Assembly: GCF_003334355.1 (NCBI RefSeq)
Contig: NZ_QOWP01000015.1
Reading direction: 5' to 3' (one strand)
Length of the DNA stretch: 64,000 nt
From: Escherichia coli
GTDB taxonomy: Bacteria; Pseudomonadota; Gammaproteobacteria; Enterobacterales; Enterobacteriaceae
In this document: piece after piece, positions 1 to 449 of the stretch
Position numbering within the stretch: position 1 is the stretch's first letter
Layout: the number at the start of each line of letters is the position of its first letter
The notes under the pieces: generated by a model
What the model saw: only the letters and a program-made list of their open reading frames with translations
What the model was told of the DNA's origin: nothing
Database searches by the model: none
Translations under genes and position numbers: made by a program

Positions 1-449
1 CTGACCATCCACTGGCGGCGAAAACGCGAATTACACCGGAAGATCTCGCCAGCGAGACGCTGTTGATTTATCCGGTACAGCGTAGTCGACTGGATGTCTG
101 GCGGCATTTTCTTCAGCCGGCAGGCGTCAGCCCGTCACTGAAAAGCGTCGATAACACCTTATTGTTGATTCAGATGGTTGCCGCACGGATGGGTATTGCC
201 GCGCTACCGCATTGGGTAGTAGAGAGTTTTGAGCGCCAGGGTCTGGTGGTGACCAAAACCCTGGGCGAAGGCTTGTGGAGCCGACTGTACGCCGCCGTGC
301 GCGATGGAGAGCAGCGTCAGCCAGTTACGGAAGCGTTTATTCGCTCAGCGCGCAATCACGCCTGCGATCATCTGCCGTTTGTGAAGAGCGCGGAGCGACC
401 CACTTACGATGCACCCACAGTGAGGCCAGGATCACCAGCGCGCCTGTAA
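1..449 (+). CDS. metR: LysR-family regulator MetR, 3' portion (gene starts upstream of window)
   Basis: In-frame translation to stop at 447-449 ends ...[32 protein letters not shown]; position next to yigM matches K-12 synteny. Confidence 0.8.

Follow-up and report, generated by a model that had tools for sequence, protein, structure and literature searches.

An ancient, probably passive overlap between the convergent coding ends of metR and yigM (bioP) in Enterobacterales

Introduction

Two convergent genes both need transcription to come to an end, a setting that is served by bidirectional intrinsic terminators, in which a hairpin is combined with T and A tracts. Convergent genes are likewise the ground plan of excludons, whose transcripts are necessarily complementary at their 3' ends and for which the definition demands proof that a long antisense transcript exerts a reciprocal regulatory effect. 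Long overlaps between the coding sequences of convergent genes form a small known class. Among 338 genomes, Pallejà et al. 2008 (PMC2478687) counted 968 overlaps of more than 60 bp, of which only 54 convergent cases were possibly real, and for most of these 54 conservation did not reach beyond very close species. The same class of conserved long convergent overlaps is described by Rogozin et al. 2002 (cited in PMC2478687).

The overlap between metR and yigM of Escherichia coli resembles the conserved convergent overlaps of Pallejà et al. (PMC2478687) in being a 3'-3' overlap of more than 60 nt between well-characterised genes that is kept in orthologs, and presumably also in its origin by loss of an original stop codon or spacer followed by read-through into the neighbour. 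Unlike most of the cases in that survey, it spans at least three families of Enterobacterales, and we did not find the pair in the supplementary lists of the same paper. The metR/yigM overlap is an unusually deep-rooted member of this class and in kind an ordinary product of 3' read-through.

According to the passages retrieved from two reports (PMC5120140, PMC4049904), YigM is a biotin transporter. The first of these, Côté et al. 2016 in mBio, describes the metR/yigM overlap with the same genes and coordinates as treated here; in the retrieved passages, the metR deletion of the Keio collection, like the yigM deletion, shows synthetic lethality with bioA and sensitivity to MAC13772, an inhibitor of BioA, and the authors conclude that deleting metR disrupts yigM too. 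In these passages the overlap is noted only as a genetic caveat. The practical points, that deleting or engineering metR or bioP damages the other gene and that Keio metR mutants are biotin-transport mutants as well, are already in this literature. The overlap is real, ordinary, already annotated and published. What the present analysis adds to the retrieved passages of Côté et al. is its phylogenetic depth, the way in which constraint is split within it, the forced origin of both stop codons and a frozen junction of 13 nt.

Results

Geometry of the overlap

We analysed a stretch of 64,000 nt from E. coli (contig NZ_QOWP01000015.1 of assembly GCF_003334355.1), referred to as the window. It begins within metR, the 3' part of which occupies positions 1-449 of the plus strand and ends with the residues ...GSPARL and a TAA stop codon at 447-449; the complete gene encodes the LysR-type regulator MetR of 317 aa. 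The minus strand carries yigM at 337-1236, which starts with GTG and encodes a biotin transporter of the EamA/DMT family of 299 aa, its TAA stop codon being the reverse complement of positions 337-339. The two coding sequences thus share the 113 nt from 337 to 449, one on each strand. An earlier note, made from the letters of this DNA, had placed the metR stop inside the oppositely oriented yigM and described a 113-nt convergent overlap at these positions; the sequence and its list of open reading frames bear out both statements, and RefSeq annotates the same 113-nt overlap between metR and yigM, the latter under its current name bioP, so that the gene names given in that note were also correct. 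In MG1655, bioP lies at 4011076-4011975 and metR at complement(4011863-4012816); in E. coli K-12 the pair metR/yigM is b3828/b3827. Positions 1-1400 of the window are 100% identical to E. coli NZ_CP025842.1 and have a match in each of the 5,426 complete E. coli genomes that the search covered.

Within the overlap, first codon positions of metR face first positions of yigM, second positions of metR face third positions of yigM, and third positions of metR face second positions of yigM. The shared segment holds the conserved ends of domains of both proteins. MetR contains the Pfam domains HTH_1 (residues 5-63) and LysR_substrate (86-288) and matches the PDB entries 5fo5 and 4ab5, the latter being the solved regulatory domain of Neisseria MetR, which aligns with residues 87-296 of the E. 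coli protein. YigM contains two EamA domains (3-128 and 139-275).

Conservation across Enterobacterales

A scan of one genome per species yielded 80 Enterobacteriaceae loci with a full-length YigM and a convergent metR. At all 80, the distance from the yigM start to the metR start is 1741 nt, with no insertion or deletion between them, and the overlap is present throughout. Its length is 113 nt in most of them (70 species); seven species have 116 nt and two have 98 nt, and in a single one (L033), where YigM is cut to 284 aa, it is 68 nt. MetR is five residues shorter in two species (L022 and L042). The same 113 nt with identical geometry are found in Yersinia, and overlaps of 95 and 98 nt in Pectobacterium and in a Dickeya-like contig, respectively. 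Both stop codons are therefore kept in orthologs, the point on which the earlier note had proposed to check the overlap, and the recurrence of one geometry in 79 of the 80 species as well as in Yersinia exceeds chance.

Two lineages lack the overlap. In Serratia marcescens, a 36-nt spacer separates yigM and metR, YigM having 286 aa (...WVAPKQIG) and MetR 314 aa (...ARPGAAGAKALAAGV); the spacer contains a GGGCCA...TGGCCC hairpin. Erwinia toletana has a DUF1456 gene between yigM and metR, with 287 aa for YigM and 312 aa for MetR. The tails of both proteins in Serratia and Erwinia are unrelated in sequence to those of the overlapping lineages. Lineages with many members carry naturally truncated forms of YigM: 284 aa, 285 aa in Salmonella Gaminara, and 286-287 aa in Serratia and Erwinia.

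By parsimony alone, which sets the overlap as the ancestral state, the overlap probably arose once before Enterobacteriaceae, Yersiniaceae, Pectobacteriaceae and Erwiniaceae split and would have been lost secondarily in Serratia and in Erwinia. As outgroups we considered YigM homologs of at most 51% identity; all five examined lay in other neighbourhoods without metR, and they do not show the state that preceded the overlap. Compared with Serratia, the overlap region breaks into two homologous parts at about position 391-408, with only 10-18 nt occurring twice, and comparison of the yigM 3' end with the metR tail revealed no significant same-strand repeat in Serratia or Erwinia. Tandem duplication as the route by which these two lineages lost the overlap was rejected, no trace of it having been found.

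The sequences between the genes in these two lineages have features of their own. The Serratia spacer (L087, 3362-3397) carries the inverted repeat GGGCCAcctcagtacggaTGGCCC, which may represent either a terminator acting in both directions or what is left of an insertion, and about 91 nt in this spacer region have no counterpart in the overlapping lineages. The Erwinia DUF1456 insert (L088, 3365-3976) encodes 158 aa, and a clear stem-loop, AGCGGAGCGGgtaaACCGCTCCGCT, follows yigM there.

Each stop codon is written by the partner gene

In the frame relation of this overlap, an antisense stop arises from a codon of the form NTT, NTC or NCT that is followed by a codon beginning with A. The yigM stop at 337-339 is forced by the conserved MetR residues F281-I282 (TTY ATH): since TTY followed by A reads as TAA or TGA on the other strand whichever Phe codon is used, the stop is always present, and it is invariant in the 80 species. 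In the opposite direction, the YigM codons F262-I263-T264 (T or I at the third residue among orthologs) generate both the metR TAA and, directly behind it, an in-frame back-up TGA at 450-452, the two together spanning 447-452. The length variants follow from the same rule. In the 116-nt overlaps, metR has lost its first stop and ends at the second, whereas in the 98-nt overlaps it stops at codon 313, opposite YigM V268.

At MetR F281/I282 (window 336-344), the codons are TTT and ATT in 80 of 80 Enterobacteriaceae species and also in Yersinia, Pectobacterium and the Dickeya-like contig; in the non-overlapping lineages codon 282 is ATC (Serratia) or GTG (Erwinia). The fixed TTT ATT makes residue E299 of YigM fixed and its stop codon TAA rather than TGA.

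Long open reading frames of the window contain, in the antisense frame of this type, 0.043 stops per codon; open runs there average 21 codons, and the probability of a run of at least 15 is 0.52. At such an average, tails of the lengths seen here (15 and 17 codons) are nothing unusual and are expected by chance once the conserved cores of the two genes abut.

Constraint is partitioned within the 113 nt

We determined nucleotide diversity per codon position across the 80 species. The overlap falls into two halves and a short junction. Positions 403-449, which encode YigM residues 263-278 in the region of the last transmembrane helix and, antisense to them, the variable MetR tail (residues 303-317), evolve as yigM only. 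Here the diversity at yigM wobble positions is 0.43, compared with 0.415 +/- 0.045 elsewhere in the gene, the signature of yigM alone, and the second positions of MetR codons 303-317, which are the third positions of yigM, are just as variable as yigM wobble sites (0.36-0.43). It follows that the last 15 residues of MetR drift freely. Positions 337-389 evolve mainly as metR. They encode the end of the MetR regulatory domain (residues 281-298), which is almost invariant and in which the first and second metR positions are conserved, opposite the variable YigM tail (residues 283-299). Changes at metR wobble positions rewrite these last 17 residues of YigM, including radical exchanges between D and G, among R, K and T, and among A, E and V.

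Synonymous sites gave an asymmetric picture, with P values that are optimistic because related species were treated as independent: compared with amino-acid-matched expectation, synonymous diversity was reduced in metR codons 281-298 (0.278 vs 0.415, P=0.0003) and unreduced in yigM codons 263-278 (0.432 vs 0.446, P=0.37). The synonymous sites across the overlap were the second check that the earlier note had proposed, and its statement that the overlap constrains the sequence stands in part. It holds for positions 390-402 on both strands and for the metR synonymous sites opposite the YigM tail, where diversity is lower by about one third; it does not hold for the yigM synonymous sites opposite the MetR tail.

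The junction at 390-402 sets YigM W279-V280-A281-P282 opposite MetR A299-E300-R301-P302 and is nearly invariant on both strands in the 80 species. It contains the least synonymous variation of any four-codon window in metR or yigM (P<5e-5 by amino-acid-matched resampling, likewise optimistic for related species). Two of its metR codons are CGA and CCC in all overlapping lineages, including Yersinia, Pectobacterium and the Dickeya-like contig, whereas the non-overlapping lineages have CGC CCT (Serratia) and CGT GCT (Erwinia). Suppressed synonymous variation in both genes was seen only at 390-402 and not throughout the overlap. Strong dual constraint is thus confined to about 13 nt, constraint is moderate on the metR side, and none is measurable in bulk on the yigM side. 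Over most of the 113 nt, amino-acid selection acts on only one of the two proteins.

Tails are kept open somewhat more often than random codon choice predicts

To gauge how neutral the tails are, we simulated the overlap with partner codons redrawn randomly from the synonymous usage of the genes themselves, using a simple codon model that ignores shared ancestry. MetR reaches its 317 aa in 78 of the 80 species, compared with about 48 expected under this simple model with species that are not independent, and YigM reaches its 299 aa in 79 of 80, compared with about 67 under the same provisos. The main signal comes from YigM V268, which is GTG in 77 of the 80 species, where GTT or GTC would truncate MetR. 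In addition, the wobble bases of YigM H276 and L270 are nearly fixed, and YigM E299 and the TAA stop are invariant. These counts are suggestive of tails that are kept open beyond expectation and are not strictly neutral. A strong role of the tails is argued against by the natural truncations of YigM, by the shorter MetR of L022 and L042 and by the unrelated tails of Serratia and Erwinia, and we infer that residues 303-317 of MetR and 283-299 of YigM are functionally dispensable.

Transcription and its termination

The earlier note had further stated that transcription of each gene must pass through the coding end of the other. This follows logically, as an mRNA has to span its own coding sequence, and full-length metR and yigM mRNAs must by the same logic be complementary over at least 113 nt. 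It is also consistent with the lack of an intrinsic terminator and with a published Rho-dependent region on the yigM strand. On either strand, in or near 337-449, we found no intrinsic or bidirectional terminator and no G+C-rich hairpin with flanking A/T tracts; Rfam covariance models gave no match at E<=1 in positions 1-1500 of the window, and the folds 3' of each stop codon have modest z-scores (-2.1 and -2.8) and lack U tracts. The pair thereby differs from bidirectional intrinsic terminators, as it has no hairpin with T/A tracts, and the Serratia spacer hairpin and the Erwinia stem-loop contrast with it in this respect. Beyond the yigM stop, the strongest hairpin of the minus-strand RNA is formed by the inverted repeat CCAGGGTCTGGTGGTGACCAAAACCCTGG at 237-265, inside metR; no U tract follows it, and the fold of 180-345 on this strand has a z-score of -2.8.

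For the yigM strand, supplementary file 2 of Adams et al. 2021 (PMC7815308) lists a region of Rho-dependent termination that peaks at position 608 of the window (MG1655 4011704 +), a coarse location, the scores being computed over windows of 800 nt. Without bicyclomycin, read coverage is 98 on the upstream and 21 on the downstream side (800 nt each); with it, the two values are 300 and 326. The Rho score is 5.07 (P=1.3e-12; PMC7815308). These data fit a model in which Rho ends yigM-strand transcription around the yigM 3' end and in the metR antisense. The yigM-strand region is the only entry for the pair in the supplement of PMC7815308, which has none for the metR strand, and the supplements of two E. 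coli transcriptome papers (PMC6131387, PMC10349824) hold no entry for a metR or yigM 3' end.

Discussion

We favour the reading that metR and yigM form a genuine, ancient and largely passive tail-to-tail overlap, to which we assign a probability of about 0.8. The functional cores of the two unrelated convergent genes would abut within about 13 nt without an intergenic spacer, the core of MetR comprising its regulatory domain and a short conserved extension to P302, and that of YigM its last transmembrane helix to P282. As there is no spacer, each ribosome would continue past the core of its own gene, translating conserved coding DNA of the partner in antisense, and halt at the first stop codon. 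These stops are created by conserved residues of the partner, MetR F281-I282 for yigM and YigM F262-I263-T/I264 for metR. The resulting tails, MetR 303-317 and YigM 283-299, would shift with synonymous substitutions in the partner and be mostly free of amino-acid selection, with weak selection probably guarding them against being cut short. Because the genes leave no room for a terminator hairpin between them, each transcript would end within the other gene, presumably by a Rho-dependent mechanism in the case of the yigM strand.

Could the whole 113 nt instead be selected for two proteins at once, with both C-terminal tails acting as functional peptides? The avoidance of stops in both tails beyond random synonymous choice would fit such true dual coding, as would the lowered synonymous diversity of metR at residues 281-298 and the near invariance of E299, R291 and R293 in YigM and of D305, P311 and S313 in MetR. 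However, the second positions of the MetR tail vary like yigM wobble sites, the YigM tail tolerates radical amino-acid exchanges, and yigM synonymous diversity is not reduced opposite the MetR tail. Several of the seemingly conserved tail residues are moreover fully forced by the partner, as is MetR P307 by YigM W274-V275, and natural lineages exist that have shortened tails or carry unrelated sequence in their place. We therefore consider selection on both tails as peptides to be unlikely. Doubt about the overlap itself can be set aside with greater ease. Most long overlaps in prokaryote annotations are mispredictions, and many convergent ones reflect 3' extensions (PMC2478687), which raises the question of whether one of the two reading frames is over-extended and the real protein shorter. 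A stop codon, unlike a start codon, cannot be mis-chosen, and both frames are open, without insertions or deletions, to the same stop in 77-79 of the 80 species and in Yersinia. The overlap also contains the conserved domain ends of YigM (EamA) and MetR, and in the retrieved passages of PMC5120140 deletion of metR destroys YigM function. The stop codons of the orthologs, together with the phenotype published there, essentially refute an annotation artefact.

Biotin synthesis consumes S-adenosylmethionine (SAM), and a link between methionine and biotin metabolism is therefore conceivable. On this basis the overlap might be kept because convergent transcription couples metR and bioP expression in an excludon-like manner, through antisense pairing, cleavage by RNase III or collision of polymerases. 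The necessary complementarity of the full-length mRNAs would be in line with such coupling, and so would the conservation of the arrangement across several families and the combination of a missing intrinsic terminator between or near the stops with Rho limiting read-through on the yigM strand (PMC7815308). Yet lock-in explains the conservation equally well, as separating the overlapped cores needs an insertion or a duplication; Serratia and Erwinia manage without the overlap, and metR and yigM are absent from the supplements of the two other transcriptome papers (PMC6131387, PMC10349824). With excludons, metR/bioP shares the convergent arrangement and the necessarily complementary 3' ends of full-length transcripts. 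We regard regulatory coupling as improbable, and just as improbable its specific form, in which a Rho-gated coupling of the methionine/SAM regulator MetR to the biotin importer BioP would have retained the overlap across Enterobacterales. If it were true, it would tie the supply of SAM to whether biotin is made, at the expense of SAM, or imported.

Under the favoured passive reading, metR/bioP offers a clean natural example of a long convergent overlap that can be maintained over very long periods without costing much. The cost is small because the two proteins mostly do not compete, each nearly free-running tail facing the conserved core of the other. In addition, the analysis supplies exact single-base changes that would truncate one of the two proteins and be silent in the other: G383T leaves MetR V296 unchanged (GTG to GTT) but turns YigM S285 into a stop, and C433A leaves YigM V268 unchanged (GTG to GTT) but turns MetR S313 into a stop.

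A few observations concern the annotation of the neighbourhood and of the ortholog set. On the minus strand, the mechanically called reading frame of yigL at 1312-2238 has 308 codons from a GTG, while RefSeq gives yigL 266 aa (1312-2112); the longer frame is a mere in-frame upstream extension that overlaps the end of pldB. Some database entries of YigM exceed 299 aa at the N terminus (P0033; P0041, 328 aa; P0081, 358 aa; P0084, 324 aa), the start in P0033 lying 29 residues upstream of the usual one, and these long entries are probably start-codon miscalls. Finally, a contig titled 'Chryseobacterium sp. 18061' (L059, CACSKA010000013.1) carries a typical Enterobacteriaceae yigM-metR locus with a 113-nt overlap and with 83% (YigM) and 92% (MetR) identity to E. 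coli, and its assembly is probably contaminated or mislabelled.
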